A stretch of DNA of 64,000 bases from an uncultured delta proteobacterium (GCA_963812015.1 CAWETI010000002.1:768001-832000), one strand, 5' to 3'; positions 15,209-60,143 are shown, counted from the first letter of the stretch. Numbers and translations are program-made. The notes: generated from the sequence alone by a model not told the origin.

Positions 15209-15267
15209 ATATGGGGATCATAGCTGCAACTTTTCCGGGTGAGGGGATAATTGCCTGGTTTGGCAAG
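15209..15267 (+). repeat. Cassette-site copy 1: core plus right arm
   Basis: ATAT-GGGGATC-ATAG-CTGCAACTTTTCCGGGTGAGGGGATAATTGCCTGGTTTGGCAAG; nearly identical to the right arm at 18241-18290. Confidence 0.8.
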
Positions 15268-15733
15268 GTATATGGCATTTAGCGTAGCTTTTCTTGATTG
15301 GTCGAGAGGGTCCTTAAGCTTTGAGGGGAATGAGATTCTCCCACGCTGCTCGACTCTGGCAGCTAGTAAAGTGCAGGAGGTCTCAGACTACAAACCGATG
15401 GGGTATTTGGCCACTGGCAGTTCGATAGACTCTGGGAAAAGATTGCTGCTTGACAAAAAATTGTGCTAACATAATCGGCTGGCTGCGCTTAAGAGGTAGT
15501 TATGCGAGATCTTAGCATTATTTTACCCCGCTTAAATAGGGGGTTTCCCTTCTATTCCCCGCTGTGCCGCACGCTGTCAGAGTGGTTGCCTGGAGGTCCA
15601 CCTTTGGGTCCGATGGGAAAATGGCAGCGGCTGACAGCCAGGGCGCTCTATCAACTATATCGATATAACTGGCCCGGGCGAGGAGACGTTTTGCACGCTC
15701 GGGCCAGGGTCCGAGGACCTGAGGCCGAGGGAA

Positions 15734-17398
15734 ATGGCCCTAAACCCGAGTAACCGCAAGAATGTCCCGGAAGCCCTTAGAATCGCCCTTAACCTGGCGA
15801 TGACCATCTTTGGTCTGGGCTTACTCTTTGCCCTTTTGGTGTGGCATTCTGGTCTATCGAGCCTCGACCTCTATGTCAACTCTTTCTACGTTCTCTATGT
15901 CAGGAATGAGCCGGTGGTATTTCTGCTGCTGTTCCTGGCTTTGTGGCTGGTGCGACCATATCTCTTGGGGGATGGGGTGCTGGCTGACTGGCCATCTCCC
16001 CTCAGCAGCGAAAGGCTGGCCAAAATTCCCTGGTTGTGGGTCATTGTCCCGGCGGCGGTACTCGTCGCCTGGCAGGGAGGCTCCCTGGTGTTGCACTGCT
16101 TTCCCTTGAGCAATGACGAATACCTGCCCCGTTTTCAGGCGCAAATCTTTGCGGCCGGCAAGATCAAGGCCTTTCTGCCCCCCGAGTTGAGAGAGTTCGG
16201 CAAGGCCCTGACGCCGATTTACGCAACTTTTGATCCCCAGGAAGGCACCTGGGTCAGCTCCTACCTGCCTATCTATGCCGGCCTACGGGCCGGGTTCCTG
16301 GCACTGGGAGTTGAGTCCTTGACCAGTCCAGCCCTGGCGGGGTTAAGCTTGGCGCTTATTGCTGGCGTGGCCCGCAGGCTCTGGCCCCAAGAGCCCCTGG
16401 CCCCCTTGGTAGCGGTCGTTCTCCTGGCCTCCTCCACCCAGTTTCTTATCACCTCCATGACCTCTTACGCCTATCCGGCGCATCTCTGCTTCAACCTGGC
16501 CTGGCTTTATTTCTATTGTCGCGGCGATGGGCTGGGAAATCTGGTGACTCCCTGGATCGGTTTTTTTGCCCTGGGTCTCCACAACCCATTTCCCCATGCC
16601 TTGTTTGTCACGCCATTCCTCCTGACCCTGGTTTTGCGGAGGAATTGGGGGCTCACCCTCTACTTCGGTTTGGTCTATGGCGCGGGTTGTATCCTGTGGT
16701 ATCTCTGGTGGACCCGCTTGGTTGTCCTTAACTTTTCCGACCTGAGCGCTATCCAGGTTCCCGGCCTTTATCAGTTGATAATCCAGCCCATGAATCTCTC
16801 CATGCTCTTTGCCTGGCAATCACTTGCCCTTACCGTCCTGACCTTCTTGTCTTTCATTTATTGGAAGGATCTTATGCCGTTTTTGAAGACTCTGGCCTTA
16901 GGCTGTCTGCTTACCCTCGGTTTTTTCTTTTTCGTTCCTGATCAGGTGTTGGGTTGGGGATATCGTTTCTTTTATGGGGTCCTGGGGAATCTTGTCTTGT
17001 TGGCAGTGGCCGGCTGGTTTTATCTCAAGGAAAGCCTGGGATTCAGAAAAGCCTGGGGGTTCTTCTTGCTCGGCACGGCTCTGGCGGTGCTGGTCCAGTT
17101 CCCCCTCCGGTGCCTGCAAGTGGAAAGCTTTATTAGGCCTTTTGCCAGATCGGCGCAATTTATTCAATCCCAGCCTTACTCCTTCGCCATCATTGATCAC
17201 ACGCAGGTGTGGTTTTCTCAGTTGCTGGTGCGTAATGACCCTTTTCTGCGCAATCATCCGAAGATCCTGTTCGCTCACTATTTAAACGAGGATCAATTGG
17301 CCAATTTAAGAACGCTGGGAACAGTCCATACCGTTAAGCCCGAAGAACTGGCCCACTTTGGCCTTCACCCCATCAAGCCTCGCCATGACTCCCCTTAA
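15734..17398 (+). CDS. Polytopic membrane protein, probable GT-C-fold glycosyltransferase
   Basis: 554 aa with many TM segments and an SNDE acidic motif in an early loop. Confidence 0.6.
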   Translation: MALNPSNRKNVPEALRIALNLAMTIFGLGLLFALLVWHSGLSSLDLYVNSFYVLYVRNEPVVFLLLFLALWLVRPYLLGDGVLADWPSPLSSERLAKIPWLWVIVPAAVLVAWQGGSLVLHCFPLSNDEYLPRFQAQIFAAGKIKAFLPPELREFGKALTPIYATFDPQEGTWVSSYLPIYAGLRAGFLALGVESLTSPALAGLSLALIAGVARRLWPQEPLAPLVAVVLLASSTQFLITSMTSYAYPAHLCFNLAWLYFYCRGDGLGNLVTPWIGFFALGLHNPFPHALFVTPFLLTLVLRRNWGLTLYFGLVYGAGCILWYLWWTRLVVLNFSDLSAIQVPGLYQLIIQPMNLSMLFAWQSLALTVLTFLSFIYWKDLMPFLKTLALGCLLTLGFFFFVPDQVLGWGYRFFYGVLGNLVLLAVAGWFYLKESLGFRKAWGFFLLGTALAVLVQFPLRCLQVESFIRPFARSAQFIQSQPYSFAIIDHTQVWFSQLLVRNDPFLRNHPKILFAHYLNEDQLANLRTLGTVHTVKPEELAHFGLHPIKPRHDSP

Positions 17399-17597
17399 GG
17401 CATTACTTGACTGAACAAGGATGAGTTTCAATAGATCCTGGAAGGTCTATCAACTAGAAAATCGACTAACCAAACCGGATATAAAAATCAAAGGGAATAT
17501 CCTGGCGAGTGCAAAATGAAGAGAAAACGCCTCCAGAAGGAAGTTTATTTACCTAACGGAGGCCCTCAAATTGATAACGACCGTAAATCATCATGTA

Positions 17598-17897
17598 TTA
17601 TTCGAGCAATTCAAATTCTTCGACGATATAACAATCATTCTTTCCAGGTTTTTCTTGGCGAACTCGCACCGCCGCCTGCCGTTCTTCTAAGGAATCGAGC
17701 TCTTGCTGATTGAAGCCCCCAGGAGCCGACCATTCGTAAATCCCATATTTGATTGCCGTGTCACTGAACACTTTAAAATAAATGCTCTTGTATTCTTTAA
17801 ATGCGAGGTCGAGATATTGTACATCCTGGGGCCCACCAAGGCAAAAGACGTTGATGGATTCGATGATGCCGATAAGGGAATCAATTGTCCATTTCAT
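17598..17897 (-). CDS. Hypothetical protein
   Basis: 99-aa AT-rich ORF starting ~30 nt beyond an IS1380-type right end. Confidence 0.4.
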   Translation of the reverse strand: MKWTIDSLIGIIESINVFCLGGPQDVQYLDLAFKEYKSIYFKVFSDTAIKYGIYEWSAPGGFNQQELDSLEERQAAVRVRQEKPGKNDCYIVEEFELLE

Positions 17898-17928
17898 ATG
17901 AAGCGGGAACTATAAAACAAAGGATCAA

Positions 17929-18165
17929 CCGAGATTATGCGGCTACCTTAGCCACTGCAGTAAAATATGGTTTTGAGGATACCTCTTCCCGGGTATAAAC
18001 CCGGAAAATTTCCTCTTTCCTATCCAAATTGTCTTTTTGAAGGCATGATAGCATAAATTTCGCTGAAAAGTAATTTGCCCGAAAATTTTAAGTATACCTA
18101 ACCCTTAGAAACCCAGATACTTCTTCAAGCCTGGCTCGGTAACCTCGAAGCGCTGGCAACTCTCC
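17929..18165 (-). mobile_element. IS1380-family right-end remnant
   Basis: Minus strand: AGTTGCCAGCGCTTCGAGG (transposase SCQxFE trace), AAATTTATGCTATCATGCC block, end CCGCATAATCTCGG; homologous to 24165-24518 and 58098-58372. Confidence 0.7.
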
Positions 18166-18191
18166 CAAGCGACTCTCGGGAAGTGTAAGTT

Positions 18192-18290
18192 CTGCTATTA
18201 AAGCGCTCATCAAGAGGGTCTGGAAGTATTTCACTATCCAGATCATAGCTGCAACTTTTCCGGGAGGGGATAATTGCCTGGTTTGGCAAG
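18192..18290 (+). repeat. Cassette-site copy 2: short one-core form (99 bp)
   Basis: CTGCTAT...CTCATCAAG...CTAT-CCAGATC-ATAG...CTTTT...GATAAT...TTTGGCAAG. Confidence 0.8.
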
Positions 18291-18324
18291 ATAGTTGGCA
18301 GAATCGTTTTATAGCCGAGCTCCT

Positions 18325-18405
18325 TCACTGCCCGGCGGTGGCGGGTGCATAGCGCTTCGGCCTTTCCCCTGGGCCACCATTATCAGGCGGTGCACTTCGC
18401 CTGCA
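18325..18405 (+). pseudogene. IS1380 transposase C-terminal trace
   Basis: Translates ARRWRVHSASAFPLGHHYQAV, matching the traces WHVHVTSAFRLAHRYRAVLA (~24240-24300) and VHATSAFPLANHLRAVLA (~58320-58370). Confidence 0.6.
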
Positions 18406-18524
18406 AAAACTTTCCCAGGTCGCGCCGGTTTATTAAATCTTTAGGGTTAACTAGAAAAGGGCCGGCGATGCAGAGGTCTAAAAAGATATTAGGCGTCAAA
18501 ACAATTTTCCAAGGGAGAGTAATC

Positions 18525-18983
18525 ATGACAGGCAAATTCAATCTCAGGTTCAGAGCGCTCTGGATAATTTTGGGAGCGTTGTTCCTGCTGACATCTCTGC
18601 ATCTGGCCCAAGCCAAAGAAGGGCCCTGGGAGCGCATGAAGGAAAAGATAAAAATAACAAAGGAATTACATGACTTGAAGCTTACGCCAGATAAAGAAGC
18701 GGCATTGCTGGCCGTGGACCAAAAGTATGCCAAGGAGCGCAAAGATCTCGTGGCCGCCTTGAAAAAATATCGTGAAGATTTAACAACCGCCTTAGGTGAG
18801 GCCAACCCGGATGAGGCGAAGATTAAAGACCTGGTAAAGGCTAGCAACGCTGCTCAGGATAAACTTTTAATCTCTTTAAAAATGGAACGGGACGAGGCTA
18901 TGGCCCTGATGACCCCAATTCAGCAAGGGCAGCTTATTATGGTCATGGGTAATTGGTTCCAGGAAATGATTAAAAAGTCATAA
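18525..18983 (+). CDS. Periplasmic Spy/CpxP-like (heavy-metal-sensor-like) protein
   Basis: Signal peptide ending AQA; LKLTPDK and MTPIQQ LTxxQ-like motifs; SD GGGAG. Confidence 0.7.
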   Translation: MTGKFNLRFRALWIILGALFLLTSLHLAQAKEGPWERMKEKIKITKELHDLKLTPDKEAALLAVDQKYAKERKDLVAALKKYREDLTTALGEANPDEAKIKDLVKASNAAQDKLLISLKMERDEAMALMTPIQQGQLIMVMGNWFQEMIKKS

Positions 18984-19239
18984 GACGCAAAAAAAGCCAA
19001 AAATAGCATCGTTATCGGGAAGGCTCAGCCTATTGGTTAAAAGTTCTGGATGCGGAGGGGTGCATCAAGGATGTTGGGGAAAAGGGAACCCTTGGTCTTG
19101 CTGTCTTGATGAGGTAGGCTTCCAGGGCCCAAACCAGGGGCAGTGACCAGCATAATAAACGGGACCCGCCATTAAATCAAATCTTGCGGGGAACCTGGCT
19201 CTCACTCCGGTTCCGATCTTTTACACAAGGAAGGATTTA

Positions 19240-19308
19240 ATGATGCCAAAATTAATTTATGTCGTACTGGCCGTGCTGAGCTATGTCATGCTCATTCTGC
19301 TGAGATGA
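19240..19308 (+). CDS. Putative 22-aa hydrophobic peptide MMPKLIYVVLAVLSYVMLILLR
   Basis: AAGGAAGGA SD upstream; single TM-like helix; below the ORF-track cutoff. Confidence 0.35.
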   Translation: MMPKLIYVVLAVLSYVMLILLR

Positions 19309-19500
19309 TGGGGGTAGTGTAAAATCGATTGCATGAATTTCTGAGGGTATAAGGAAAGACATATTTCCCATAGACTGGCGGTTGGCCAAAGCATACTATG
19401 GGTATACGCGGACGGCTTCCTTGACGTCAGGATCTCTGATAACTCCTTAAAAGCCAGGTGTACAGGGAAAGTGCAGCACCATGAAGGATCATAACGCTTC

Positions 19501-20466
19501 GTGAAGGTGTTCGGCATGTGGGGACGCAAAGGCCTGATCGTTGCGGGGTTTTTTGGTCTGCTTCTCGTGGGAGCTATCACGCTGGCTTTTTGGGCGTACG
19601 CACGCGATCCGCTCTTGTCCCTCCCCCCGCCAGAACACGGGTTGAAGGCAGAGCGGACGACTCTTTCTGCGCCCGATCACCGTCATTTTGAGCGCATCAC
19701 GCTGCACGGGAACACGCTTGGCAATATCGCCTTCACCCTCAGCCTGCCCGATCCGCTTCCCCCCCAAAAAATACCGGTCGTTCTGGTGATGGGCGGCCTT
19801 GTCACGGGTGAAGACAGCATCCGCTATATAAAGGACGCCGGAGATAACGCCATCGTTGGCTACGCCTGGCCGATACCGGTTCGCCTTCACGGAATTAGCG
19901 CCTTTATGCTGCAAGCGCCTGGTCTCTACCACAACGTTATGGCGATACCAGGACAGGTGGCCTCAGCCCTACATTGGCTGATTGAACAACCTTGGGCCGA
20001 TGCGGGACGTATTAGTCTGCTTGGCTTTTCCCAGGGAGCCTTGGCCGTCCCTTCCGTGCAGGACATCGCCGTGAATAATGGAACCCGCGTCGGCTGGACT
20101 ATCATCGCCTATGGCGGTGCGCCTCTCGGTGCGCTCCTCGCCGCTAACCCGCACATGAAACCGACCTGGCTGCGCGTAGCCATGGCACCTTTGGTGGATC
20201 TTGTGTTTCATTCCCTGGAACCCACCGTCCATCTTCCACGTCTATCCGGCAAATTTCTGGTGCTTGAAGGGCGGGACGACAATCTGATCCCCGAAGCGGC
20301 TCGCAACCTCTTGCGGGAGGCAGTACCGGAGCCGAAAACCGTCGTCACTTTTGAGGGCAATCACATGGGCGTAGGGCCGGACAAGATGGCTCTGCTCCAG
20401 AAAATTATTGAAACCAGCAAAAAGTGGCTGATCGAAAACGGCGCCATCAACCACGGCCCTGATTAA
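19501..20466 (+). CDS. Membrane-anchored alpha/beta hydrolase
   Basis: N-terminal TM, GFSQG nucleophile elbow, later Asp (GRDD) and His (GNH). Confidence 0.75.
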   Translation: MKVFGMWGRKGLIVAGFFGLLLVGAITLAFWAYARDPLLSLPPPEHGLKAERTTLSAPDHRHFERITLHGNTLGNIAFTLSLPDPLPPQKIPVVLVMGGLVTGEDSIRYIKDAGDNAIVGYAWPIPVRLHGISAFMLQAPGLYHNVMAIPGQVASALHWLIEQPWADAGRISLLGFSQGALAVPSVQDIAVNNGTRVGWTIIAYGGAPLGALLAANPHMKPTWLRVAMAPLVDLVFHSLEPTVHLPRLSGKFLVLEGRDDNLIPEAARNLLREAVPEPKTVVTFEGNHMGVGPDKMALLQKIIETSKKWLIENGAINHGPD

Positions 20467-20549
20467 GCCCCACTTTCCCCCTCCCTCGGGGATGCAAAGC
20501 GGGTCTCCTCCCAGTGCTCAATCACATAGCTATCTCAAAGTGTTGCTAA

Positions 20550-20768
20550 CTGCTATAAAAGGAAACTTATCAACTTCCGGAAAATTCAAACTATCCTGAT
20601 CATATCTTCACTTTTTGGCATGCAGAATCTCTTTAGTTCACCCCCAGTGTCCTGGCTTCCTCTTCCCGCCGGCAGCTGACATCATCCTCCCCACAAATGC
20701 CCTTGGAAGATATGCAGATCATATCCGTAGTTTTTGCCGGATAGTTGATAAGTGAAGGTTTTGGCGAG
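20550..20768 (+). repeat. Cassette-site copy 3: long two-core form (219 bp)
   Basis: CTGCTAT..AACTTATCA; cores CTAT-CCTGATC-ATAT (20591) and ATAT-GCAGATC-ATAT (20710); ATCCTCCCCACAA; GATAAGTG..TTGGCGAG. Confidence 0.85.
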
Positions 20769-20885
20769 TTATAGAAACTTTCGTATCATAGATTTTCGCT
20801 TTCCCTTTGGCAAACCATCTTTGGCTTGACTTGACCCCCATCCTAACTTAAAACTTGGTACAACTACTGGGCGCAGGTCAATACC

Positions 20886-21110
20886 GTGACGCACGCCTTC
20901 CATGAAACTGCCACCAGGGCGGGCCTGAAGTGCCGGCTGCATGATCTGAGGCATACCTACGCCTCACATAAGGCCATGGCCGGCGTTGACCTCTATACGC
21001 TCAAGGAGCTGCTCGGGCACAAGGACATAAAGGCCACGCAGATATATGCTCACCTGTCGGCCAAGCATCTCAAAAAGGCCGCCGGCGAGGGCGTGGCGGG
21101 AGGGGATTGA
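20886..21110 (+). pseudogene. Tyrosine recombinase C-terminal fragment
   Basis: HDLRHTYAS...LKELLGH...TQIYAH catalytic boxes; N-terminal part absent. Confidence 0.85.
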
Positions 21111-21138
21111 TGGAAAAATTAGTGGGAGGAAAAAAGCC

Positions 21139-21960
21139 ATGATTAATTTTCAGCCGGTTGATGTTTGTGGAAAAACCATAGACCACGTTTGGTTTCAACT
21201 TCTCAAGCAAGTTTTAATTTATGGACGCCCTTATAAGAAAGACGAAGGCTCTTTTGCTGGTGAGGAAATGCTTGAACTTGACAGGGTGAGCGGAACAATT
21301 TTTGAGCCTCTGCAATATAATGTGTCTGGAATTCGTAAGCCTCTGGCTGTAACTGTTCCTGGTGGGGTTGATGCCCCCACTACGGATGAGTACATTGAGA
21401 AGTATTTTGTGGAATATTTGATGGACTCAAACCTGCCCCAAACTGAGCATTATCGTTATTCAACCTTTATTACCGGAGGCCGTTATACTCTGCCCAAATT
21501 GGATTTTTTTATTCCAGACCGGCCTTCTTGGTATTCATTGGATGAGGTTATTGTGAGAGTGCCTAATCAAATTCAATGGTGCATTGACCACTATAAGACC
21601 AAGGGATTTCACAACAATCATTGCCTCATTCAGCTGGGCTATCCAGAATCAAACCTGGCCTATGATAAGCCGTTTGAAGATGAAACTGAACGTGGAACCA
21701 GCCCATGTTTGCGTCTTATCGACACCAAGATAGTGAAGGATTCAGACGGAGAGTTTTACCTTTGTTTTTATGTAACTTTCCGGTCTTGGAATTTGTGGGG
21801 TGGATGGCCAACCAATATTGGCGGTTTAGCCCTTCTCATGGAGTATATGGCCCACGAACTTGCAGTTAATCCTGGGCCATTGAGTTTCAATTCCAAAGCC
21901 ATGAACATTTATAAATTTCAACTCACTTCTTTAATGAATCGGGTGGGAACTGTGGAGTAG
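21139..21960 (+). CDS. Divergent thymidylate synthase (ThyA-fold, archaeal/delta type)
   Basis: SPCLRLID catalytic Cys, FRSWNLWGGWPTN; SD GGGAGG; low GC. Confidence 0.75.
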   Translation: MINFQPVDVCGKTIDHVWFQLLKQVLIYGRPYKKDEGSFAGEEMLELDRVSGTIFEPLQYNVSGIRKPLAVTVPGGVDAPTTDEYIEKYFVEYLMDSNLPQTEHYRYSTFITGGRYTLPKLDFFIPDRPSWYSLDEVIVRVPNQIQWCIDHYKTKGFHNNHCLIQLGYPESNLAYDKPFEDETERGTSPCLRLIDTKIVKDSDGEFYLCFYVTFRSWNLWGGWPTNIGGLALLMEYMAHELAVNPGPLSFNSKAMNIYKFQLTSLMNRVGTVE

Positions 21961-21992
21961 GGAGGGACAATAAACCGGCTTTTGCGCCCAAA

Positions 21993-22325
21993 ATGCGCCC
22001 AGGCAGCCTGAAGACCCCGCAGCAAGAAGTCTACTACCGGAAAGCTGCGAGGCTCTATAAGCACGGGGTCACAATTCCGCTGATTCTGGTGGGCGGCATC
22101 CGCTCCTATGGGGTGGCAAAGAAGTTAGTCCGGGATGGAAAGGCTGACTACATTTCCATGAGCCGCCCCCTCATTTGCGAGCCAGGGCTCGTCAAGCGCT
22201 GGCGGGAGGGTGACCGCCGCAAAGCGGAATGTGTTTCAGACAATGCATGCTTTGCACCTGCATTGGACGGTAGGGGCATTTACTGCGTGACGATGGCCAA
22301 GAAGCCGAGCAGGACCAGCCAATAG
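21993..22325 (+). pseudogene. C-terminal fragment of NADH:flavin oxidoreductase (Old Yellow Enzyme family)
   Basis: PLILVGGIRS, ADYISMSRPLICEP, CVSDNAC; no N-terminal part. Confidence 0.8.
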
Positions 22326-22393
22326 TGGGGCATTGACAGCGGTGGCAGAAGCTGCCGCATAATCTCGCATATCACTATCGAGGATATCATACC

Positions 22394-23020
22394 ATGGACC
22401 AAAACGATGGATTCATCCTGGAGGTTTTCTCCGATTACGTCTGACCCTGGTGCTACTTCATCACCGGGCGTGTTGAAAGGCTAAAGGAAGAGCACGAGAT
22501 AGAGATCAGGTGGATTGCCTTCCCCCTTCATCCGGAAACACCGGAAGAGGGCTTGAGCCTCGAGGAGCTTTTCAAGGGACGGGGAATAGATCTCCCTTCG
22601 TCCATGGAGCATCTGAAGAAAGTCGCTGCCGAGTTGGGACTTCCCTGGGGTATGCGCACGAGAACCTACAATAGCCGCCGGGCGCAAGAACTCGGGAAAT
22701 GGGCTGAGGCATTGGGCAAAGGGGTTGAGTTTCACATGGCTGTATTTCAGGCATACTTCGCTGATGGAAGGAACATCGCCGATATTTCGGTCTTGAAAGA
22801 GATCGCCGGGGCAATTGGCCTTGATGGCCGAATGGCGGAACAGGCCTTGACTGAGAGGACTTTCAAGGAAGCAGTAGACCGTGACTGGGATTATTCCCGC
22901 ACCTGCGGCATTACAGCAGTTCCAACTTTCATGGTTGATGGGCGGAAAGTGGTCGGCGCCCAGCCTTACCAGGCTCTTGAAGACCTTGTAAGAGCCGCGG
23001 GGGGGAATATGCGGAAATGA
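22394..23020 (+). CDS. DsbA/FrnE-like selenoprotein (UxxC)
   Basis: MDQNDGFILEVFSDYV-TGA(22442)-PWCYF continues in frame into the 22553 ORF (GITAVPTF...GAQP). Confidence 0.85.
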
Positions 23021-23242
23021 TGGGCGCAGTATAGTATCTCGGGTTCTCTCCGACAAGCTTCACTTGGATGTGGTCTTTAGCCATGTGCCCTTCGATGATG
23101 CTAAACATATTGTAGATAAGCTGAGGTTAGCTGCAATCCATACACAACCCGGTTTCGGCGCAGGAGATGGCCGCCTCTTGCCACCTCCGGCTCAGATAAC
23201 CTGGCTCACAAAAGAGGAAAACTTCTTAGAGAGATAGTCATC

Positions 23243-23788
23243 ATGAACGAGCTCCCTTTATCTAAGGCATACTGCTTCATTGAGCCAGGTCCGGTCGTGC
23301 TGGTGACGACCGCGAATGAGGAACGCGCTAACATCATGACGATGAGCTGGCACATGGTGATGGATTTTACCCCATTGATCGGCTGCATCATTGGCCCCTG
23401 GGATTACAGCTTCACGGCGTTGAGTACAACTAGAGAATGCGTGATCGCAATTCCTACGGTTGATCTTGCATCCAAGGTGGTCGAAATCGGCAACTGTTCG
23501 GGTGATGAGATCGATAAGTTTAATGCCTTTGGCCTGACCCCGATGCCAGCCCAAAAGGTCAAGCCGCCGCTCGTGGCCGAGTGTCTCGTCAATCTCGAAT
23601 GCCAGGTAGCAGATACCAGCATGGTTGATAAGTACAATCTCTTCATCCTGGAAGTGGTCAAGGCCTGGACCGATCCAGAGCGCGAGGAACGCCGGACGAT
23701 CCACCACAATGGGGATGGTACCTTCGTTGTCGATGGCAGGACCATCAATCTAAAGGAGAAGATGGTAAAATGGCAGGTTCACCTCTAA
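23243..23788 (+). CDS. Flavin reductase-like family protein
   Basis: EPGPVVLVTT, NIMTMSW, GNCSG..DKF, PPLVAEC..NLEC, HHNGDG. Confidence 0.85.
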   Translation: MNELPLSKAYCFIEPGPVVLVTTANEERANIMTMSWHMVMDFTPLIGCIIGPWDYSFTALSTTRECVIAIPTVDLASKVVEIGNCSGDEIDKFNAFGLTPMPAQKVKPPLVAECLVNLECQVADTSMVDKYNLFILEVVKAWTDPEREERRTIHHNGDGTFVVDGRTINLKEKMVKWQVHL

Positions 23789-23839
23789 CCAAGCAGGCTA
23801 TCGAGGACCAGATTCCGGATCATGGGACGTGCGATGTTG

Positions 23840-24058
23840 CTGCTATGACTATGAACTTATTACCGAACAAATAAACACTTAATCTCCAAAGCATATCGAC
23901 TCTTTTCGACCTGATGGCTCCATAGCTTTCCCGCCCATAATCGACCCTCTTTCAAACGTGAGCACTTGAAATCTTCCTCCCCACAAATGCCAGGACAAGA
24001 TATTCAGATCATATATGTAATTTTTGACTGCCTGATGATAAGTGAGAGGTTTGGCAAG
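23840..24058 (+). repeat. Cassette-site copy 4: long two-core form (219 bp)
   Basis: CTGCTATG..AACTTAT; cores ATCT-CCAAAGC-ATAT (23882) and ATAT-TCAGATC-ATAT (24000); TCTTCCTCCCCACAA; GATAAGTG..TTTGGCAAG. Confidence 0.85.
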
Positions 24059-24081
24059 TTATTCACCATATCATAGTTGAT

Positions 24082-24158
24082 AAAACCCGGATGGGTTGAG
24101 AGGCTGACGTCCGGAACTGTGAGGGCGTTGGGGTGAGATTCCCCCACGCTACTTGACT
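24082..24158 (+). ncRNA. Group II intron 3' remnant (domains V-VI)
   Basis: CCCGGATGGGTTGAGAGGCTGACGTCCGGAACTGTGAGGGCG-TTGGGGTGAGATTCCCCCA-CGCTACTTGAC matches the bacterial DV/DVI pattern; no RT ORF nearby. Confidence 0.7.
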
Positions 24159-24164
24159 CGAAAA

Positions 24165-24518
24165 TTCCTACAGTTGGAATTACTGATAAGTCGGCTGATA
24201 AAGACTGAGGTCAGAGTCTCTTATCATTATTCTGCAGTGGCATGTCCATGTGACCTCTGCCTTTCGCCTGGCTCACCGCTACAGGGCGGTGCTTGCCTGG
24301 GGTCCTTAGGCTTATCAGCCAGATGGCATCTGGTCGCCGAGGGATTTTTATGCCCGAACTCTGTGGAAAATTGACTTTTCGCTTAAATTTGCGCTATCAT
24401 GCCCTCTACGAGAAAATTTGGCTTCGAGAAGAGGACCGTTTGGGGGATTTTCCCCGGGCCAAGAGGCCCTAAAAACCATTTTTAGACTGCGGTGACCCAG
24501 ATTGCCGCATAATCTCGG
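24165..24518 (+). mobile_element. IS1380-family right-end remnant with outward promoter
   Basis: LISRLIK..RVSYH / WHVHVTSAFRLAHRYRAVLAWGP*; TTGACT-N18-TATCAT; end CCGCATAATCTCGG 5 nt before the autotransporter ORF ATG. Confidence 0.72.
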
Positions 24519-24523
24519 TTAAT

Positions 24524-27500
24524 ATGCCTGCGATGTCCTGGAAAGGTGTTCAGTCCTGTAAGATTGGGCGTATTATTTTTAGAGCTGTCACTTATCTGTT
24601 GATAATCACTCTCGGTGTCAGCTATTCATCTGCCCACGCCCAAACCCTGACTCCGGCTCTGGTTTTCTCCACCTATCTGGGAGGAACGGCTGGCTCCAAT
24701 CCGCTTACTTTCGCCCAAAACGTCGCTTGCGACGCACTGGGGAATATCTACGTGACCGGCGCCACCCAGGCCACGAACCTTCCCGTCCTGAACGCCTACC
24801 AACCGACCCCGGCGGCAGGCAGCACGGAGTCGGCGTTCGTGGCGAAGTACAATTCGGCCGGCCAGCTGCTTTGGTGCACCTACCTGGGTGGCAATAATCA
24901 AAGCATGGGCATTGGGGTGGCGGCCATGCCGGACGGCGGCGTGGCGGTCGTCGGCCTTACCACTTCGAATGCGTCGTTCCCCATCACTTCGAACGCTTTT
25001 CAGTCGAAGAACAACGGACAGTCGGATTACTTCGTGACCGTATTTAATGCGCAGGGCAAACTCGAATACTCGACGTACCTGGGTGGGAGCGGCGTGGAGG
25101 GCGCGGTGGGGGCAACAGGTTTTACCGACGATAGCAACCCCGGCAACTGTATTGCGGTGGATGCAAGCGGTCGGATCTATGTTGGCGGCATAACCACTTC
25201 CGGTGGCGGCAGCGGACAGACTAAATTCCCGCTGACGTCCAATGCCTATCAGAAAAATCTTGCCGGCTCGACCAACGCCTCCCTGAGCATCATCGACCCT
25301 AACCAGAGCGGCGGCGCCTCGTTGGTTTACTCCAGCTTTCTGGGCGGGGACCACGATAGCCAAGGGCACAGCGTCGCGGTGGACCCCTCCGGCCAGTACA
25401 TTGCCGTGGGCGGCTTTACCACCTCTTTGAACTTCCCCACCACCAGCAACGCCTACCGGAGTACTGCCCCGCCTGGTGGCTTTGGCCCCAATTCAAGCAA
25501 CGGCTTTATCACCGAATTCCAATCAACCCAGCCCGGTTCCCCGTCCTCCACATACAGCATGCGCTACTCCACCTACCTGGGGGCAAACTCGAGCACCGCC
25601 CGAGATGACGTCTACGGCATGACCATGACGCCATCGGGGCTCATCGTGGCCACGGGCCGGACGCAGTCGGCGGGCTTTCCCATGACCACGGGAGGCCCCA
25701 CCATCTTCAATTCCGCCCCCTATCTCCAGGAGGGAGTGTCTGGAGATGAGCCCTACGTCGTGAAGATCAACCCTGCCTTGAATGGCACCGCCTCCCTCGT
25801 CTACTCCACCTTCCTGGGAGGCGGATGTAAAAGCGGCAAGTGGGGCAGTTGGTCCACCAGCGTGGCCGTCGATGCCCGGGGCGCGGTCTATGTAGCCGGG
25901 GAGACCGGGCCCAACACCCAAGGCGCCCCATATGTGCCTTCCAACCTGACGGCGCCCCAGAAGTTTCCTTTCACCCCCAACGCCTTCCAAAAGGCGCCCC
26001 AGGGGAGCGAAGACGCCTTGCTCATGCAAATCAACCCAAGCGGCGACTCCCTGGGCTACTCTACCTACCTCGGCGGGACACTCAGTGACCGCACCTACGG
26101 ACTGGCCGTCGATCCCGACGGCAACGTCGTCATGACAGGTCTCACCTTTTCCAGCGATTTTCCGTTACAAAATGCGGCGCAAAACTATCCGGGCAACAAC
26201 GGGTATCAAAACGCCTTTGTGACCGAATTCTCGCCGTTATACACTCCTAATAATTTGATAACAGACTACGGCGCCACCTATACGGTGACCGGAGACATCA
26301 CCTATGATAATGACTATATTGGCCAGAACAGCACCGGCGCGCTGATCCAGGGGGATTTCACCAACACGGTGAACAATAATCTTGAATTAGGCCAAAACGC
26401 CGGGGCCAGCGGCAGCTATAACTTGAGCGGCGGCAGCCTGTCGGTGGCCGGAAATGAGTACGTCGGCTACTCCGGCACCGGCGCCTTCACCCAAACCGGC
26501 GGTACTCACACGGTGACCGGCATCCTGATGCTGGGGGCCAATGCCGGCAGCAGCGGCACCTACTCGCTGAGCGGCGGCAGCCTCACGGTGGGAGACTATG
26601 AAGCCGTGGGCTTCTGCGGCACCGGCTCCTTCACCCAGAGCGGCGGCACCCATACGGTGACCGCCCTGTATCTGGGCACCGAAGCCGGGGCCAGCGGTTC
26701 CTATACCCTGAGCGACTCCGGTAGCGGCAGCCTTCTCTCGGTGACCGGAAATGAGTTTATCGGCTACTCCGGCGCCGGCACCTTCACCCAGACGGGCGGC
26801 AGCAATACCGTGGGCAGTAACTTCTTTGTCGGCACCCAGGGCGGCACCGGCTCCTATAGCCTGAGCGGCGGCAGCCTCACGGTATCCGGCGACCTCTACC
26901 TGGGTAACAGCGCCGGGGCCAGCGGCAGCTATAACCTCAGCGGCGGCAGCCTATCGGTGGGAGGCAATGAATATGTCGGCAACTCCGGCACCGGCACCTT
27001 CACCCAGACCGGAGGCAGCCATACGGTGACCGGCACTTTGTCCATCGCTGATCAGTCAGGTAGCAGCGGCACCTACAACCTCCAGGGGGGCAGCTTGACC
27101 GCCCCAACCTTCCAGGTGAACTCGAGCGGCATCTTCAATTATAGCGGCGGCACCTTTACGGGTCGATTAGTCAATTACGGCACGGTAAACTTTAACGCCG
27201 ACTTCACCGCCAGCGACGGGCTGGCTAACTACTCTGCCACTCCTCTCAGCATCAACGCCGGCCGCACCGTCACCTTGAACGGCTCGGGACTGGACAACGA
27301 AGCGACCCTGGTAGTAAACGGCACCCTGGCAGGCATTGGCCCCCTGGTCAACAACACCACCGGTACGCTGAGCGGTACTGGCACCATCCAGGGGAACCTC
27401 ACCAACCAGGGTACGCTCTCACCCGGGAACTCCCCCGGCACCTTGACCATCAATGGCAACTACACCCAGACCGCCGCCGGCACCCTGTTGGAGCAGATCG

Positions 27501-29043: not shown

Positions 29044-29092
29044 GCCTGAGATAGTCCCAATTGTTAAACTCCGCTGTGTAGGTACAACTTCC

Positions 29093-29266
29093 ATGATCAA
29101 GCTCCTCCGTACTCAAAGCAGCTTACGATTGCTCATTTGTCTACTGTTGGCGGGAGCAACCTTGTTGCCTTATATCCAAGTCAAGGACCATGGCTTCAAC
29201 ACTTTTGATGACGACGTGTACGTCACTGAGAATCCCATGGTCCGGGCCGGGCTTATCTGGTATTAA
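29093..29266 (+). pseudogene. N-terminal fragment of a TMTC-like/TPR membrane protein
   Basis: LLICLLLAGATLLPY..VKDHGFNTFDDDVYVTENPMVRAGL, then stop. Confidence 0.6.
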
Positions 29267-43688: not shown

Positions 43689-43742
43689 ATTCTCCCTATT
43701 CTCAGGTCAACGTTTCCTGTCCATTATTTTTTATGGGATAGA

Positions 43743-44467: not shown

Positions 44468-45981
44468 ATGCGGGTTCTCTTAATTAACAGCAATCTGAAG
44501 GATGATATATTAGCAGCCCCCCTATCGGCCTGTGCTATGTGGCCAGCGCAGCTGCGGAGGCCGGTCATGAAGTGCTGGTCTTAGATCTCTGCTTTAAGCG
44601 GCGGATCAGACAGGAACTGAAAAGAGCCATCATCGGCTTCTCGCCGCAGATAATCGGCGTTTCATTGAGGAATCTTGACAACGCCAACATGCTCCGTCCA
44701 GTTGTTTACCTCCCATCGGCGCTTGAGATTGTTCAGGTGATTCGAGAATTAACCGCCGCTCCCTTAGTGCTGGGAGGCTCGGGAGCCAGTCTTGATCCCC
44801 AAGGGGTCTTGGAATTTCTGCACGGGGATTACATTATCGTTTCAGATGGGGAGAAGAGTTTTGTGGAACTTCTTAAAGCCCTGAGCCGGGATGAATCTCC
44901 TGCCGATATACCGGGAGTGGGAATGTGGTATCAGGGTAAGTTCCATGTAACTCCGCCCCAATTAACCTGCTTCCCCTTGGGAAATCCACGCCTCGGGAGA
45001 TGGGTTGACCTCACTCCCTATGAAAAGATGGGGAGTAGTTATACAGTTCAGACCAAGAGGGGCTGCAGGATGCGGTGCATCTATTGCACCTATAATCAAG
45101 TGCTGGAAGGAAACCGTCTCCGGTTACGTTCTCCGGTGGAGGTGGTGGATGAGATAGAGGAGGCGTTTTATAAATTTAAGCCGGAAACCTTTGAATTCGT
45201 GGACTCAGTCTTTAATGACCCTTTGGGCCATTGCCAGGAAATTTTAGAAGAAATCGTCCGGCGCCCCTGGAAAGCCCGTTTTACCACCATGGGGGTAAGC
45301 CCCAAGCATCTGGATACCCAACTGCTTCACCTCATGCAGCGGGCTGGGTTCAGTTCTTTTATGATCACACCCGAATCGGCCTCCGAGGCCATGCTCACCA
45401 ATTATCAGAAGGGCTTCGGTATAGAGGATTTGCATAGGGCTGCCGAGGCCATTAACAAGTTTTCTTTTCCCGTGTTCTGGTATTTTCTCGTCGGCGGCCC
45501 GGGCGAGACCACTCGCACCCTTCAGGAAACCCTGGAATTCATTGGGCGCCATTTGATCCGGAAGGAAAGTCCTCCTTATAACCTGGCCCATATCTTTTTA
45601 GGGGTGAGAATCTATCCAGGCACCAAGCTCTGGCGTATAGCCCTGGAGGAGGGCTTTATCCACGATCGAAGCGACCCACTCAGGCCTCTCTGGTATCTGT
45701 CCCGGGAACTTGACCTGGATGTGACGATGCGTCAATTGTATGAGGCCGCCTGCCGCTGGCCCGAGATTGCCTTGGGGGATGTGGAAAAGTTTTTCCCGCT
45801 CACAAAGATATTGGGGGTCAGCGGGAAAGTCTTCTCCTTACCCAAGCCCTACTGGCAACATTTACCCTCGGTCAATCGCATTCTCATCAAGTTAGGTCTA
45901 CTCTCCCTGTTCCAGCCCACTGGCATTCCAGCCCGGCTGCGTGAGTCCTTGGCACTCCAAAGGCTGCCCTTTAAGCAATAG
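44468..45981 (+). CDS. Cobalamin-binding radical SAM protein (one base missing in a C6 run at 44517-44522)
   Basis: MRVLLINSN..AP then PIGLCYVAS after the shift; QTKRGCRMRCIYC; FVDSVFN; GGPGET. Confidence 0.88.
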
Positions 45982-46071
45982 GCCGGCCTCGCCGCCTGCA
46001 GCAGATAAGGAGTAGACATTCATCATAGGAGTGTCAGATATCAGGAAAGGCCGAATACAGAACAACCGAGT

Positions 46072-55954: not shown

Positions 55955-57094
55955 CTATGGCGTCAATTCTTTCCGGTATATCCTAAATCTCTTATTCACT
56001 TTGGCGCCCCCATCCATATACCACTGGTTGATCAGGTCATTGTCTTCAAGATTCCAGCCTAACTCAATATACTGGTATCCCTTATATTTAGGATTTTCAA
56101 TAATCGTCCGGAAAAGGTAGTCGAAGGCTAATAGGGGTAGCCCCATTTGGCGGTACTTTTTTCTAATCCCAAAAATCAACCCCCGATGCCCATTGATTTC
56201 CCGCCGGTAGAGGAGAAACTTGAGCCATCCCAGCATTCCTATTTTACCATTGAGCCGTTTTAACAAGGGATTGATATCCGGAATGACGACTCCCACCCCG
56301 ATCGGCTCCTGGCCATCTAGCATAAAAAAACCCAAGTCAGGATCCATGATGCGCGCCAAGCTGTGGCCGATCTCTTCCCACTCGGCATCGGTCATGGGGA
56401 CAAACCCCCAGTTGTCAAACCAGGCTTCGTGATAGATCTCCTTCACATACTTCAATTCGTTGTGGAAATCTTCTCGAACTCGGATAGGCCGTATTTGGAT
56501 GTTGGCCTTTTTGGAGATGCGCCGGGCAAGACGCCCCACCCAGGGTGGCGGTTGCCAGTGGCGATCCACCCAAAACGACAGCAGGTCCTTTTCTTTGCTG
56601 TAACCGCAGGATTCCACCAATCCTGGATAGTAGGGGGGATTATACGTCATCATTACCACCGGGCGTTGTTGGTAGCCCTCCACCAGCAAGCCTGCCTCAT
56701 AGTTGCTGGAAGGATTTAAGGGGCCCCGCACAAAAGTCATTCCCTGACCCCGGAGCCATTCTTCCACCGCGCCCATGAGGGCTGCCGCGGCTTCTAAGTC
56801 TTTAGAGCACTCGAAAAATCCCCATATTCCCATGCGCTCATCGTGGAACCGGTTGTAATTATGGTCCACGATGCCAGCGATGCGGCCCACCGTCTCGGTA
56901 CCCCGCTGGGCCAGAAACAGCCTTTGCTCGGCAAATCGCCAGAAGGGATGCGTTTTAAGGTCAATTAGCTTAGCCACCTCCTTTTTCAAAGGGGGGACCC
57001 AGTTGGGGTCATGGGCGTAAATCTTCCATGGCAGTTCTAAAAAGGCCTTCATCTCCGAAGGTCGCGTGACGGTAATCAATTTCACCGGTGCCAT
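55955..57094 (-). CDS. YghO-type GNAT protein (bacterial ceramide synthase bCerS-like)
   Basis: LPWKIYAHDPNWVPPL, HPF, VGRIAG, GFFEC, RGPLNPS, YNPPYY, NWGFVPMT, ELGWNLEDN. Confidence 0.8.
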   Translation of the reverse strand: MAPVKLITVTRPSEMKAFLELPWKIYAHDPNWVPPLKKEVAKLIDLKTHPFWRFAEQRLFLAQRGTETVGRIAGIVDHNYNRFHDERMGIWGFFECSKDLEAAAALMGAVEEWLRGQGMTFVRGPLNPSSNYEAGLLVEGYQQRPVVMMTYNPPYYPGLVESCGYSKEKDLLSFWVDRHWQPPPWVGRLARRISKKANIQIRPIRVREDFHNELKYVKEIYHEAWFDNWGFVPMTDAEWEEIGHSLARIMDPDLGFFMLDGQEPIGVGVVIPDINPLLKRLNGKIGMLGWLKFLLYRREINGHRGLIFGIRKKYRQMGLPLLAFDYLFRTIIENPKYKGYQYIELGWNLEDNDLINQWYMDGGAKVNKRFRIYRKELTP

Positions 57095-57164
57095 GAAAAT
57101 TCCTTTATTATGGATTTACCGCACAGAAGCGATTCATGAGCACGCGGAAATGGTAGCCCGCGGC

Positions 57165-57365
57165 GGCCATGGACATACCATCTCCGGGCATGATAGGAAA
57201 CCATGGCGCCCATCTTGATCAGGCGCTTAATCAGCCAATCCATGGATCGTTTAACTACTTCGCCCCAGACATAGAACTGCCGGATCATGTTGAGGAGGTG
57301 GTAAGCCAGAAGCCCCATCTTCAACCGGGCTTGGTTGGCCTCGAAGCTCTGGCAACTGGTCTTAT
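57165..57365 (-). pseudogene. IS1380 transposase C-terminal fragment
   Basis: TSCQSFEANQARLKMGLLAYHLLNMIRQF...RLIKMGAMVSYHARRWYVH. Confidence 0.75.
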
Positions 57366-57924
57366 AGTTATGCTTATTTCAGGCAATTCTTGCGGCATAA
57401 TCAAGGATATGAATACTCTCCTCACCTACCTACCAACCATCAAAAATAATCAGGGATTAGGCCTGACACTTGGCACAAAAACTTTAAATGTCGCCAGGGT
57501 CTTAGATAACGCTATGATATCCATGTCAACCTGGATTATGCAGCAAAAATTGAGAGAAAATAGTATAATATATTGATATAATTAGATATATTAGTAAATT
57601 AGGGGTGTTCCAAGATGCTCGTCAATGCTGAAAGCCAGAATGGATTGATTCAGCCGGATTTAAACCAAAATATCATAACAGATTTTCAAGGGCAAAGATC
57701 ACTTCAGGCGTTAATTTTCTTCTGGTGCGAGAGATTGATGACCTTTCAGGATCATTAACCAAAGGAAAGATTGCCTGGAAGACTTTGGGCCACATATTCG
57801 AAGCATTCCTTAGTCCAGATGGTGCATGAATGGAGGCCCGCCTGGTTTCCATCTTTGTCAAGGAGGCGGTGGCTCTTGCACTTGGACCTCGCCAAAGAGA
57901 GAGAAAGGTAAACAAGAAATAAGA

Positions 57925-58068
57925 TTACCGACTTCTCTTTTGATCTCTCGAAATAATCTCAATTATAAACAAAATGCCAATCAATACACTTAATATTGAT
58001 CCCGCAAGAATCGCGATTGGCAATTCTTTCCAACCTATTTCCATAATATTTTCTTCGGTCGTGGTCAT
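57925..58068 (-). CDS. Small single-TM protein
   Basis: 47-aa ORF with hydrophobic helix and basic tail, starting 30 nt beyond an IS1380 right end. Confidence 0.45.
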   Translation of the reverse strand: MTTTEENIMEIGWKELPIAILAGSILSVLIGILFIIEIISRDQKRSR

Positions 58069-58097
58069 GGTTTGTTCCTTGTGGACAAGGCAATCCT

Positions 58098-58372
58098 CCG
58101 AGATTTTGCAGCAACCCGGGCCACCGAATTCCAAAAACGGTTTTGGCGACCTCTCTTTCCGGGTTTAACCCCGGAAAGCTTCTTCTTTTACAGCCAAATT
58201 ATCTCGTGGGAGGCATGATAGCACAAATTTCGCTGAAAGAGTAATTTCCCCAAAAATCTGAGCAGACCAAACCCTTAGAATCAAAATGCTTCACTGCTGT
58301 GGAGCTTAAGGAGTCCATGCCAGCACCGCCCGTAAATGGTTAGCCAGTGGAAAAGCTGAGGTCGCATGCACA
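58098..58372 (-). mobile_element. IS1380-family right-end remnant
   Basis: VHATSAFPLANHLRAVLAWTP*, AAATTTGTGCTATCATGCC block, end CTGCAAAATCTCGG. Confidence 0.72.
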
Positions 58373-58406
58373 TTAGACCTCCGGGCTGGATCAGAGGTGT
58401 CGATAG

Positions 58407-58463
58407 CTGCTATGATCCGAAACTTATCACAGAGCCAAAAACTTCCCCATATCCAGAAGATAT
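58407..58463 (+). repeat. Cassette-site copy 8: left arm plus core
   Basis: CTGCTATGATCCGAAACTTATCACAGAGCCAAAAACTTCCCC-ATAT-CCAGAAG-ATAT. Confidence 0.85.
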
Positions 58464-58914
58464 GTGCTCTTTGGTGGCCGGCCCCGCCGCTGTCTCTGTC
58501 TCTTTTTCGGCTTCCGTTCTCCCTACGCCCCTTGGGGGCTAAAGGTTTCACGGTTATCGGGCCCAGAGCGCAGGCGTACCCTCAGGGTCAACGGCCCTGG
58601 GGGATGGGTTCGTCTCCCTCGGTCAGTCGCGGCCATGTGGGAATCGGCGCCTCCTGCACCGATGGCCCGGCCACCCATCGACTCCGAATCCCCGACACAA
58701 GCCGGCAGGGAGTGTTCACGACCTGGCTAAAGGCCTGGTTGAAGCAATGAGAGCCCCCCCTGAGGCGATCATCCTATCCCTGGACCCGTCCCGCCGGCCA
58801 CTGGTGCACCGCAGGTCCGGCCTTGCCCCTACCTACGACGGCCCCTTTACCCCTCCTCATTCCTGTGAACTCTGCCCAGGGTACGGCAAACTTGGCCCAC
58901 CGTCTCCTCCTGTC

Positions 58915-60076
58915 CGGGGCCACCTCCGGCGATCTGAACACGGTCCTGGACGCCATCGATGGCTTACCGGCCAACCCCAATGTCCGGGACGCCTTCAAGC
59001 AGATCTCCCCGGATAAGGCCGGGGCCCTGTCCACCCTGGCCTTTGCCGGGGCAGCCTCCCAGATGCGCAACCAGGCCCAGCGGATCACCGATCTGAGCTT
59101 CGGTGGCCGGGAGGCCGGAGTCCTGGGTGGGCTCCCCGGGTCCTTTGACCTCAATTACTCACGGACGGGGGGGCTGATGTTGGCCTATAACTCCGCCAGC
59201 CTGGCCGGGCTGATCACGGAAAAGCCCAAGGCAGCCCCCGAGAGCCGCTGGGGTCTCTACCTTGACCCGTCCCTCATCTTGGGGTCTCAGCAATCCTCGG
59301 TGAACCAGACGGGATTTAACTTCACCATGGCGGGCTTCACTGCCGGGGCCGACTACCGGGTTCGGGACAACCTCCTGGTGGGCCTGGCTACGGGCTACAG
59401 CCACACCAATTCCAGTTTCTTCGGCTCCGGGGGCGGGGTCCAGACCAACACGTGGCCCCTGACGGCCTACGCAGCCTACCTGCCCCAGTCCTTTTACGCT
59501 TACGGCTCCCTGGGCTATGCCCTGAACCTCTTCAACCTGCAGCGGCAGATCGGCTTTGGGGGCCTCAACCGCACCGCCACCAGCTCCACTACGGGCAATC
59601 AGCTCAACGCTTACGGGGAGGCGGGGTACGACCTGAAGGCCAGTTCCCTGGTAATAACCCCCGTGGTTTCCCTGGCCTACTCCGGCCTCTGGGTGGACAG
59701 CCTGACGGAGAACGGCGCCGGGGCCCTGAACCTCAAGGTCTCTCCTCAAAACGCCACCTCTCTGCAAACGGGGGTAGGCGCTAAGGTGGCCGCGCCTTTG
59801 AAGAGGGGCCCGGTGACGGTGGTGTCTCAGGCCTACGCCACCTACCAGCACGAGTTCGCCAACGACAGCCGGGGCCTCAACGCCAGCCTCAGCCAGAGCG
59901 GTAGCACCTTCAATTTTCAGACGGACGCCGCCCCCAAGAACTATGCCTTGGTGGGGGCCAACGTGACCATCTTGACCGACAAAAACTTCCGGGTTGAACT
60001 CAACTACAATACCGAAGTGGGCCGATCCAACTACACCGCCCATTCCGCCTACGCCGGGGTGCGCTGGGAATTTTAA
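58915..60076 (+). pseudogene. 5'-truncated autotransporter (linker plus beta-barrel only), paralogue of 24524-28975
   Basis: TSGDLNTVLDAIDGLPAN..KQISPDKAGAL..VRWEF closely matches the earlier gene; no signal peptide or passenger. Confidence 0.8.
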
Positions 60077-60087
60077 TGTGCAGACAC

Positions 60088-60143
60088 CTGCCCTGATCCG
60101 AAACTTATCACTGAGCCAAAAACCTTCCATATCCAGAACACAG
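60088..60143 (+). repeat. Cassette-site copy 9: left arm plus partial core
   Basis: TGATCCGAAACTTATCACTGAGCCAAAAACCTTCC-ATAT-CCAGAAC; near-identical direct repeat of copy 8. Confidence 0.83.

Follow-up and report, generated by a model that had tools for sequence, protein, structure and literature searches.

We describe here a family of short repeats in the DNA of an uncultured delta proteobacterium, nine members of which lie among unrelated genes in a stretch of 64,000 nt (the window, G000:C2:768001-832000, from genome G000 of 3.96 Mb in 6 contigs). These nine sites are best explained as non-autonomous copies, similar in form to miniature inverted-repeat transposable elements (MITEs), of a small mobile-element family coding for a tyrosine recombinase, a reading to which we assign a probability of about 0.6. 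An earlier examination of the same DNA (the sequence-only reading) had seen in these sites an undescribed gene-cassette system, assembled by a recombinase encoded elsewhere. The sites are indeed real, linked to a recombinase and oddly co-oriented, but a cassette system is not demonstrated, and the small-element family, though best supported, leaves the spread of the copies and their alignment unexplained.

Anatomy of the sites and of the autonomous element

Profile hidden Markov models (HMMs) for nhmmer were made from the window copies to represent the left arm with core (L), the middle (M) and the core with right arm (R). A member of the repeat family, on the + strand in every case, stands at each of the nine starts given by the sequence-only reading, as judged from sequence reads, a repeat finder and the module HMMs, which match the window copies with E values of 1e-8 to 1e-19 per module. 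The HMMs find no match in 1-15207, which takes in the housekeeping 1-14.8 kb said earlier to be free of copies, and none in 60141-64000. The consensus proposed earlier, CTGCTAT..ACTTATCA..AAAAA for the left arm, ATAT-N7-ATAT for the core and TTTTT..GATAAGT..TGGCAAG for the right arm, is borne out in an alignment of 20 long copies drawn from 9 genomes. The single arm-core-arm anatomy that accompanied it holds only at 29474-29576 and 18192-18293, the other seven sites comprising four long copies, one R-only and two L-only. Long copies, of ~225 nt, consist of L, core1, a ~119-nt insert M, core2 and R, the two cores being 25-nt direct repeats that the repeat finder places 118-119 nt apart; short copies, of ~105 nt, read L-core-R with a single core.

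The autonomous unit lies outside the window, at C2:302473-303520 of G000, and comprises in order a reverse-complemented R, a ribosome-binding site, an ATG, ~285 codons, a terminator hairpin and a reverse-complemented L, with a single recombinase gene between the arms, antisense to the L>R direction. The complete element is ~1,050 bp long with the termini 5'-ACTGCTATGA ... TTTGGCAAG-3', and each end, read from the terminus inwards, has ~14 unique nt, a CACTTATCAC box, a CAAAAAC box and the core ATAT-N7-ATAT. BLAST comparison of the recombinase loci confines homology to the interval from the outer R end to the outer L end (positions 998-2045 of locus L103), with unrelated flanks, and L and R are therefore the two ends of a discrete unit of ~1,050 bp. 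Since the window copies share the ends of the autonomous unit but are without its gene, we regard them as its non-autonomous derivatives; like MITEs they are short, non-coding and present in many copies, with ends common to an autonomous element.

Linkage of the sites to one recombinase clade is found in both G000 and its relatives, where an Xer-like tyrosine recombinase gene lies between L and R. The C-terminal 143 amino acids of the protein are matched at 85-94% identity at 10 places in 9 further genomes, matches elsewhere being shorter or more divergent, and of 18 loci compared, among which are two overlapping pairs, 12 have arms beside the gene, with L ~48 nt past the stop, R just before the start, or both. 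The recombinase is patchy in its occurrence, with 1-3 copies in each of 25 of the 83 genomes of the class; class-wide matches are 63-94% identical, and those that are full-length and uninterrupted 81-94%. It matches Pfam Phage_integrase (E 1.6e-21), the nearest named models being XerA, XerC and XerD, all of them far below their cutoffs, and the nearest solved structures being archaeal XerA-type proteins and XerD. The integrase C-terminal fragment noted earlier within the window, at 20886-21110 (+), is confirmed by Pfam (PF00589 Phage_integrase, E 1.1e-12, profile positions 111-171/172). We rejected it as the recombinase of this family, as tblastn against the genome (E <= 1e-3) misses C2:302-303 kb.

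The relative orientation of arm and recombinase gene is constant in the 12 arm-bearing loci, which bears upon a very improbable reading of the sites as invertible switches. In such a scheme the arms would be the inverted repeats of a flip-flop segment, either M or the recombinase gene, that toggles neighbouring genes, many such switches being served by one recombinase. In favour of a switch are the imperfect inverted repetition of the arms around a short segment, the position of most copies upstream of genes and the small, simple tyrosine type of the recombinase. However, the gene is antisense to L>R in 12/12 arm-bearing loci (of 18), M keeps the same orientation relative to the outer arms in 20/20 long copies from the assemblies of 9 genomes, with 0 flipped, the core spacers are direct and not inverted repeats, and in the short copies there is nothing left to invert.

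After about codon 20 the recombinase gene contains the recoding site CCCAAAAAAAATACG. Eight of 11 copies have a run of A8 here, which places the rest of the protein in the +1 frame, so that a one-base slip on the run is required to make the complete protein; one has A7 and is in frame, one has A9, and in the last the run is of equal length but interrupted. In 16 of the 29 matches of the class-wide search the open frame around the query measures 262 amino acids, which fits a shifted A8 arrangement as the probable normal state of the gene. Many insertion-sequence transposases are made through slippage on an A run and, by analogy, the A8 run would be a site of programmed slippage, either transcriptional or as a +1 ribosomal shift. 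In G000 the sole recombinase copy has an in-frame TAA where relatives carry GAA and its enzyme is consequently dead, so that the window copies are fossils.

Distribution and orientation of the copies

Module matches, counted genome-wide at E <= 0.01, number 63 for R, 37 for L and 18 for M, and merge into 76 loci of 50-225 nt: 35 R, 13 LMR, 12 LR, 11 L, 3 MR, 1 LM and 1 M. They occur on both strands (48 + and 28 -) in ~15 clusters throughout the genome, contrary to the suggestion that the family was restricted to the window island. Used as a DNA query, a long copy has matches in 15 of the 17 other genomes searched in the genus, in 1 of 7 from the remaining genera of the family and in 2 of 9 of one genus in a second family; the 17 genus relatives are ~75-88% identical to G000, and in them the island is spread over many contigs. 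The sites are intergenic, as had been stated, with 75 of the 76 genome copies clear of genes called by a crude codon-usage caller (~75% coding density, for which figures on orientation to genes are rough), and the open reading frames that overlap the window copies have no Pfam match.

The co-orientation of neighbouring sites, first remarked upon in the window, extends to the genome: of the 54 neighbouring pairs separated by less than 20 kb, 49 have both members on the same strand, compared with 34.8 +/- 3.4 in a distance-matched gene control, in which 0 of 2000 draws reach 49. Co-oriented clusters are also present in G014, a relative with an intact recombinase. As regards a possible replication-strand bias, GC skew is weak, and ~50 of the 76 copies agree with its sign, the exceptions lying in blocks. 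The copies accumulate in low-GC mosaic regions, where other mobile DNA is drawn to them.

The gene downstream of the site is on the same strand in 48 of the 76 loci (crude gene calls), and this, together with the presence of GG-N10-GC in 21 of 58 R copies, above a rough chance estimate of ~8%, could be taken to favour a dispersed sigma-54 promoter or regulon module. The R end, TGGCAAG-N4-yyGC, would then resemble a -24/-12 promoter and the palindrome GATATG-N5-CATATC upstream of it an activator site. We find this even more improbable than a set of switches, as the -12 GC is missing in 37 of the 58 R copies, which do not qualify as sigma-54 promoters, and conservation ends at TGGCAAGnTAt, exactly the IS110 target and element terminus. 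Moreover, the same R arm forms the upstream region of the antisense recombinase gene, and the similarity spans 100-230 nt, far beyond the needs of a regulatory motif. The least probable reading of all is that of a structured non-coding RNA, or of a palindrome like the enterobacterial repetitive intergenic consensus (ERIC) or repetitive extragenic palindromic (REP) sequences, that affects the stability or termination of mRNA. The short form is a 105-nt imperfect palindrome whose arms were paired by RNAalifold when given only 4 sequences, but with the 20 long copies the program gives 0 conserved pairs; the arm variants, by our reading of the alignments, are uncompensated, and Rfam has no match at gathering score in the window, nor at E <= 5 around 31700-33600.

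Within the window, long copies are found at 20550-20772 (L 20550-20616, M 20618-20705, R 20707-20772; E 7e-13 to 2e-16), 23840-24062 (L 23840-23906, M 23908-23994, R 23997-24062), 31838-32055 and 44085-44307 (L 44085-44151, M 44153-44240, R 44242-44307), the R terminus TGGCAAG of the third ending at 32055, the insertion point of an IS110-family element. The short copies occupy 18192-18293, which has a variant left arm (R module E 5e-11), and 29474-29576, where L (29474-29540) and R (29515-29576) overlap by 25 nt. A solo right end at 15208-15280 consists of the core GATATGGGGATCATAGC and an R arm ending TTTGGCAAG, without a left arm (nhmmer R positions 3-66, E 6e-13), and is 92-93% identical to the R part at 18235-18300. 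Two solo left ends, both matched by the L module, lie at 58407-58472 (L arm and core, E 1e-11) and 60088-60140 (E 1e-8). The latter begins 12 nt past the stop of the autotransporter gene 58823-60076; in the relative G015 an L arm likewise lies 6 nt past the stop of its autotransporter gene.

The composition of the window is uneven, with a GC content of 46-53% at 15000-25000, 41000-46000 and 56000-59000 and of 58-66% elsewhere. The low-GC parts hold several gene fragments: an Oxidored_FMN flavin oxidoreductase is represented by its C-terminal end (21993-22325), a solute-binding protein by its start (40404-40715), and a further gene is truncated (29090-29260). Internal tandem repeats (69-75 nt and 144 nt) at 26329-27161 fall in the passenger domain of a 1483-amino-acid autotransporter and show length variants in metagenome contigs. 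The autotransporter beta-domain paralogues at 28193-28975 and 59294-60076 are 71-75% identical, and the gene 58823-60076 is short and mostly beta-domain. A repeat of ~150 nt, at 17963-18110 and 58133-58280 (76% identical), lies 80-130 nt upstream of two left arms, with relatives downstream of the R arm at 24071 and in the autotransporter locus of a related genome.

Derivation of the copies and the cassette reading

For a small-element family, the recombinase would act on two directly repeated cores, and recombination of core1 with core2 would remove the internal segment to give the short form, L-core-R. Internal variants would be seen in the M-bearing long copies and in those that enclose other genes, and solo L or R ends would have arisen by truncation or by recombination with other sites. 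The L and R matches overlap by 14-25 nt in each of the 12 LR loci, which amounts to one shared core, and the core of the short form, by our reading of the alignments, looks like a fusion of core1 (left half) with core2 (right half); a hybrid core of this kind is the product expected from recombination between directly repeated cores. A variant with another gene inside occurs outside the window at C2:1185951-1187619, where a radical-SAM/B12-binding gene takes the position that the recombinase gene has in the autonomous unit, between L and R and antisense, with the two halves of M on either side; a 1.1-kb internal segment occurs twice, at 94% identity. Over 102 nt the short copy 18192-18293 and C2:1102979-1103080 agree at 99%, and their surroundings are unrelated on either side, from which it follows that whole short units get copied. 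A small peptide on the minus strand of M was also considered and rejected, its open reading frame being kept in only ~9 of 20 copies and frameshifted or stopped in the rest.

Several observations weigh against such a family of elements. MITEs inserting at random would not place 49 of 54 pairs of neighbours on the same strand. Between the two ends the outermost 14 nt show no inverted repetition, the inverted CACTTATCAC and CAAAAAC boxes and the core being subterminal, and no target-site duplication matching per copy was found, just nTAn on both sides in most copies, which leaves the copying route of whole units unexplained. M has no match in the 18 recombinase loci and is therefore not derived from the recombinase gene. 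Three recombinase units, in G010, G033 and G006, have in common a different left arm that starts right after core1, and at C2:1634743 and C3:1004741 the upstream flank, L and core are ~90% alike and then diverge, with the breakpoint at the core. The part played by the enzyme is that of a candidate, too: that it acts upon the sites, moving and cutting them, at which position it would cut, and that whole units would spread in this way, we infer from the sequences. Two metagenome-contig scans using the flanks of 18192-18293 gave 0 matches to an empty site, and no orthologous filled and empty pair is alignable among the 17 genus relatives.

Some of these observations would be expected of a cassette system, a reading that we consider doubtful. 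L-core-R would here be an att-type site with strand exchange in the core, and circles of R-genes-L would integrate at other cores and thereby build co-oriented arrays, the recombinase gene being itself a cassette inside one site. A more specific proposal, and likewise an unlikely one, is gene accretion of a non-integron kind by the recoded Xer-like recombinase, whose own gene would be a cassette that is on only when it is inside a site and slippage occurs on A8, by the polymerase or the ribosome. The co-orientation of neighbours, both in G000 and in the clusters of G014, favours accretion, as does the shape of the window array, which opens with a solo R and closes with a solo L. Such an outline would be left by an L-core-R circle that integrates into a bare core, and it recurs in the cluster at C3:722-764 kb. 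To these may be added the position of the array in low-GC mosaic DNA, the mixed combinations of left-arm and right-arm subtypes (by reading the copies) and the homology breakpoints at cores in the G010, G033 and G006 units and between C2:1634743 and C3:1004741. In G008, furthermore, a short L-core-R lies upstream of a conserved gene that in G000 carries L-recombinase-R, and the intervening DNA does not align.

On the other side, 10 of 15 clusters open with R and 4 of 15 close with L, no more than the abundance of solo R and L predicts. The unit conserved between genomes is L-gene-R and not R-cargo-L, and the 99% copying of 18192-18293 took in neither flank. The spaces between sites hold 1-10 genes on both strands, a hydrogenase operon included, and modules of the window are not bounded by sites in the same way in relatives: in G016 no site lies within 3 kb of the Spy-like and hydrolase module, downstream of which G008 has a solo R, not L, and in G004 the HDAC gene adjoins the hydrogenase genes with no site between. 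A fresh duplicate of the DsbA-like and flavin-reductase module 22333-23848 (+), at C3:1010659-1012174, is also contrary to accretion. Its identity, 100% by BLAST with four mismatches visible on inspection of the first 60 nt, ends 9 nt into the left arm (CTGCTATGA/, where '/' marks the junction) at both loci, beyond which one is a long copy and the other a short one; the duplicate thus stops at the outer edge of L and not 58 nt further on, at the core. The module opens with a promoter-like TTGACA...CATAAT of its own, and its identity to several genus relatives, at 87-93%, exceeds that of the housekeeping genes (76-85%).

The earlier proposals for a cassette system consequently stand in part. 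ATAT-N7-ATAT elements are plausible core-type sites, but shuffling at the cores is not borne out, and breakpoints lie in some instances at cores and in others at outer ends, as in the duplicate of 22333-23848. Assembly of modules at the sites by the recombinase draws support from the co-orientation and from two core-located breakpoints; the L-gene-R unit and the modules of relatives argue against it, and no module was seen moving. With copies in both orientations genome-wide and MITE-like in form, the strong claim fails, and local co-orientation and the core breakpoints leave a weaker form of it. A search for excised circles gave no convincing joint in short Logan contigs, to which the read-level search was confined and whose uncovered parts carry no information. 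The joints 18236>23967, 20703>31992 and 23916>31963 were rejected as circles; with sides of 25-32 nt, they join equivalent parts of different copies and are read as cross-mapping of other copies.

IS110-family elements, known systems and significance

Insertion sequences (IS) of the IS110 family are guided to their targets by a bridge or seek RNA, the mechanism of IS621 and IS1111. One such element (IS-A, 1372 bp) lies at 32056-33427 (+) in the window, with a transposase at 32151-33209 (DEDD_Tnp_IS110 PF01548, E 9e-13; Transposase_20 PF02371, E 6e-26) and a 3' non-coding bridge/seek-RNA region at 33210-33427. Its left junction, TGGCAAG/TAACTATGATG, is present in 8 of 10 foreign IS-A copies examined (one has its left end deleted and one has none), and its right junction, CATAGGAG/nTAn, in 6 further copies; these recurring junctions fix IS-A at 32056-33427, exactly on the R terminus of the long copy. 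Joining of its two ends would yield TTGACT-N17-TATGAT, a sigma-70-like promoter.

The 3' region of IS-A follows bridge/seek-RNA logic, with predicted guides both to the target (TTGGCAAG at 33285-33292) and to the element's own end (the donor guide ATAGGAG at 33359-33365). It accompanies the transposase in 26 of 70 related loci, other phyla included. The donor guide, ATAG[G/C/T]AG in three variants, equals the element's own end in 19/19 copies from several phyla. Where the target guide differs, in 11 relatives, it matches the left flank of the same element over 7-8 nt in seven cases and over 4-5 nt in four. In G000 the 3' module has 9 matches, 6 of them away from any transposase gene. The long copy was itself considered as the bridge RNA of the adjacent element and rejected, an R or long copy lying directly upstream in only 3 of the 10 closest foreign IS copies and the 3' RNA region always accompanying the IS.

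A second IS110-family element, of 1717 bp, has two identical copies in G000, at C3:449833-451549 and on C3 near 891-892 kb, both of which are inserted ~4 nt inside the outer L terminus (target GGATCAT-AG-CAGTTA, opposite strand). Two IS110-family elements, then, carry predicted guides aimed at the two outer termini. A decayed second IS-A copy follows an M-R copy at C3:886879-888173, its 3' RNA module tandemly duplicated. Another repeat of 119 nt, at 20762-20880 (+), abuts an R terminus and closes, over its last 64 nt, with the right end (..GGGGGCAGGTCA) of a multi-copy IS; the 64-nt end has ~18 genome copies and the whole 119 nt has 5, each right after TGGCAAG. Contigs from 3 of 4 sequencing runs end at 20880. 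From the look of its transposase C-terminus, we take the multi-copy IS ending there to be IS3/IS481-like.

The insertion of an IS110-family element at a dispersed repeat has a parallel in ISPpu9 of Pseudomonas putida, which is reported to lie in REP sequences and to be associated with the small RNA Ssr9 (PMC12288879). ISPpu9 resembles IS-A in its DEDD transposase, a conserved downstream non-coding region, extra solo copies of that region and insertion at one exact place in a dispersed repeat; it differs in its target, which for IS-A is the outer terminus of a tyrosine-recombinase element and not a REP sequence.

The sites themselves match neither the attC sites of integrons, judged by reading the consensus, nor dif, as had been recognised earlier. 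They share with integrons a tyrosine recombinase, imperfect palindromes of ~100 nt, co-oriented arrays among unrelated genes and a possible strand bias. However, the recombinase is not IntI (TIGR02249 44.4 bits against a cutoff of 265, over residues 10-160 only; NF011946 31.2 against 435), it is nested in one site and does not head one array, and there are ~15 clusters per genome. Furthermore, there is no GTTRRRY box, crossover would fall in the middle of the palindrome and not at the edge of the site, and several genes on both strands lie between sites in place of mostly single, co-oriented, promoterless cassettes. The pdif sites of Acinetobacter plasmids are 28 bp long (11-6-11), alternate in orientation and are served by the host XerCD; they too are Xer-type recombinase sites that bound unrelated gene modules, but the present sites are of 105-225 nt, co-oriented and provided with a recombinase of their own. 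RIT elements contain three tandem tyrosine recombinases only, within long imperfect inverted repeats, and the mechanism by which they move is unknown. The present element is likewise a mobile unit with imperfect inverted-repeat bounds that codes only for tyrosine recombinase, but for one and not three, and it is much smaller, with many non-autonomous copies.

Insertion sequences with MITE and cargo-carrying (mobile insertion cassette, MIC) derivatives are known (cf. PMC6211511, PMC5009743). Here, too, there is one low-copy autonomous element and there are many short, internally deleted copies with its ends, some with passenger genes between them, and the enzyme gene is broken by a conserved slippery homopolymer. 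The differences are that the enzyme is an Xer-like tyrosine recombinase and not a DDE, HUH or DEDD transposase, that the outermost bases are not inverted repeats, that no target duplication was found and that local co-orientation is strong.

DDE, HUH, serine and DEDD enzymes are all known from small bacterial transposable elements. To our knowledge, it is unusual for a 1-kb element to have an Xer-like tyrosine recombinase as its sole gene together with dozens of short derivatives and a conserved slippery A run; a search of the literature outside subscription journals gave no description of either a tyrosine-recombinase element with MITE-like derivatives or a slippage-dependent tyrosine recombinase. 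The local co-orientation of the copies in mosaic, low-GC DNA may be a clue to strand- or site-directed spread, or else the footprint of integron-like accretion. The elements at the two termini would show that RNA-guided IS110-family elements can in nature be programmed to enter another mobile element at its ends, with a covariation of guide and target that may be read directly from genomes.

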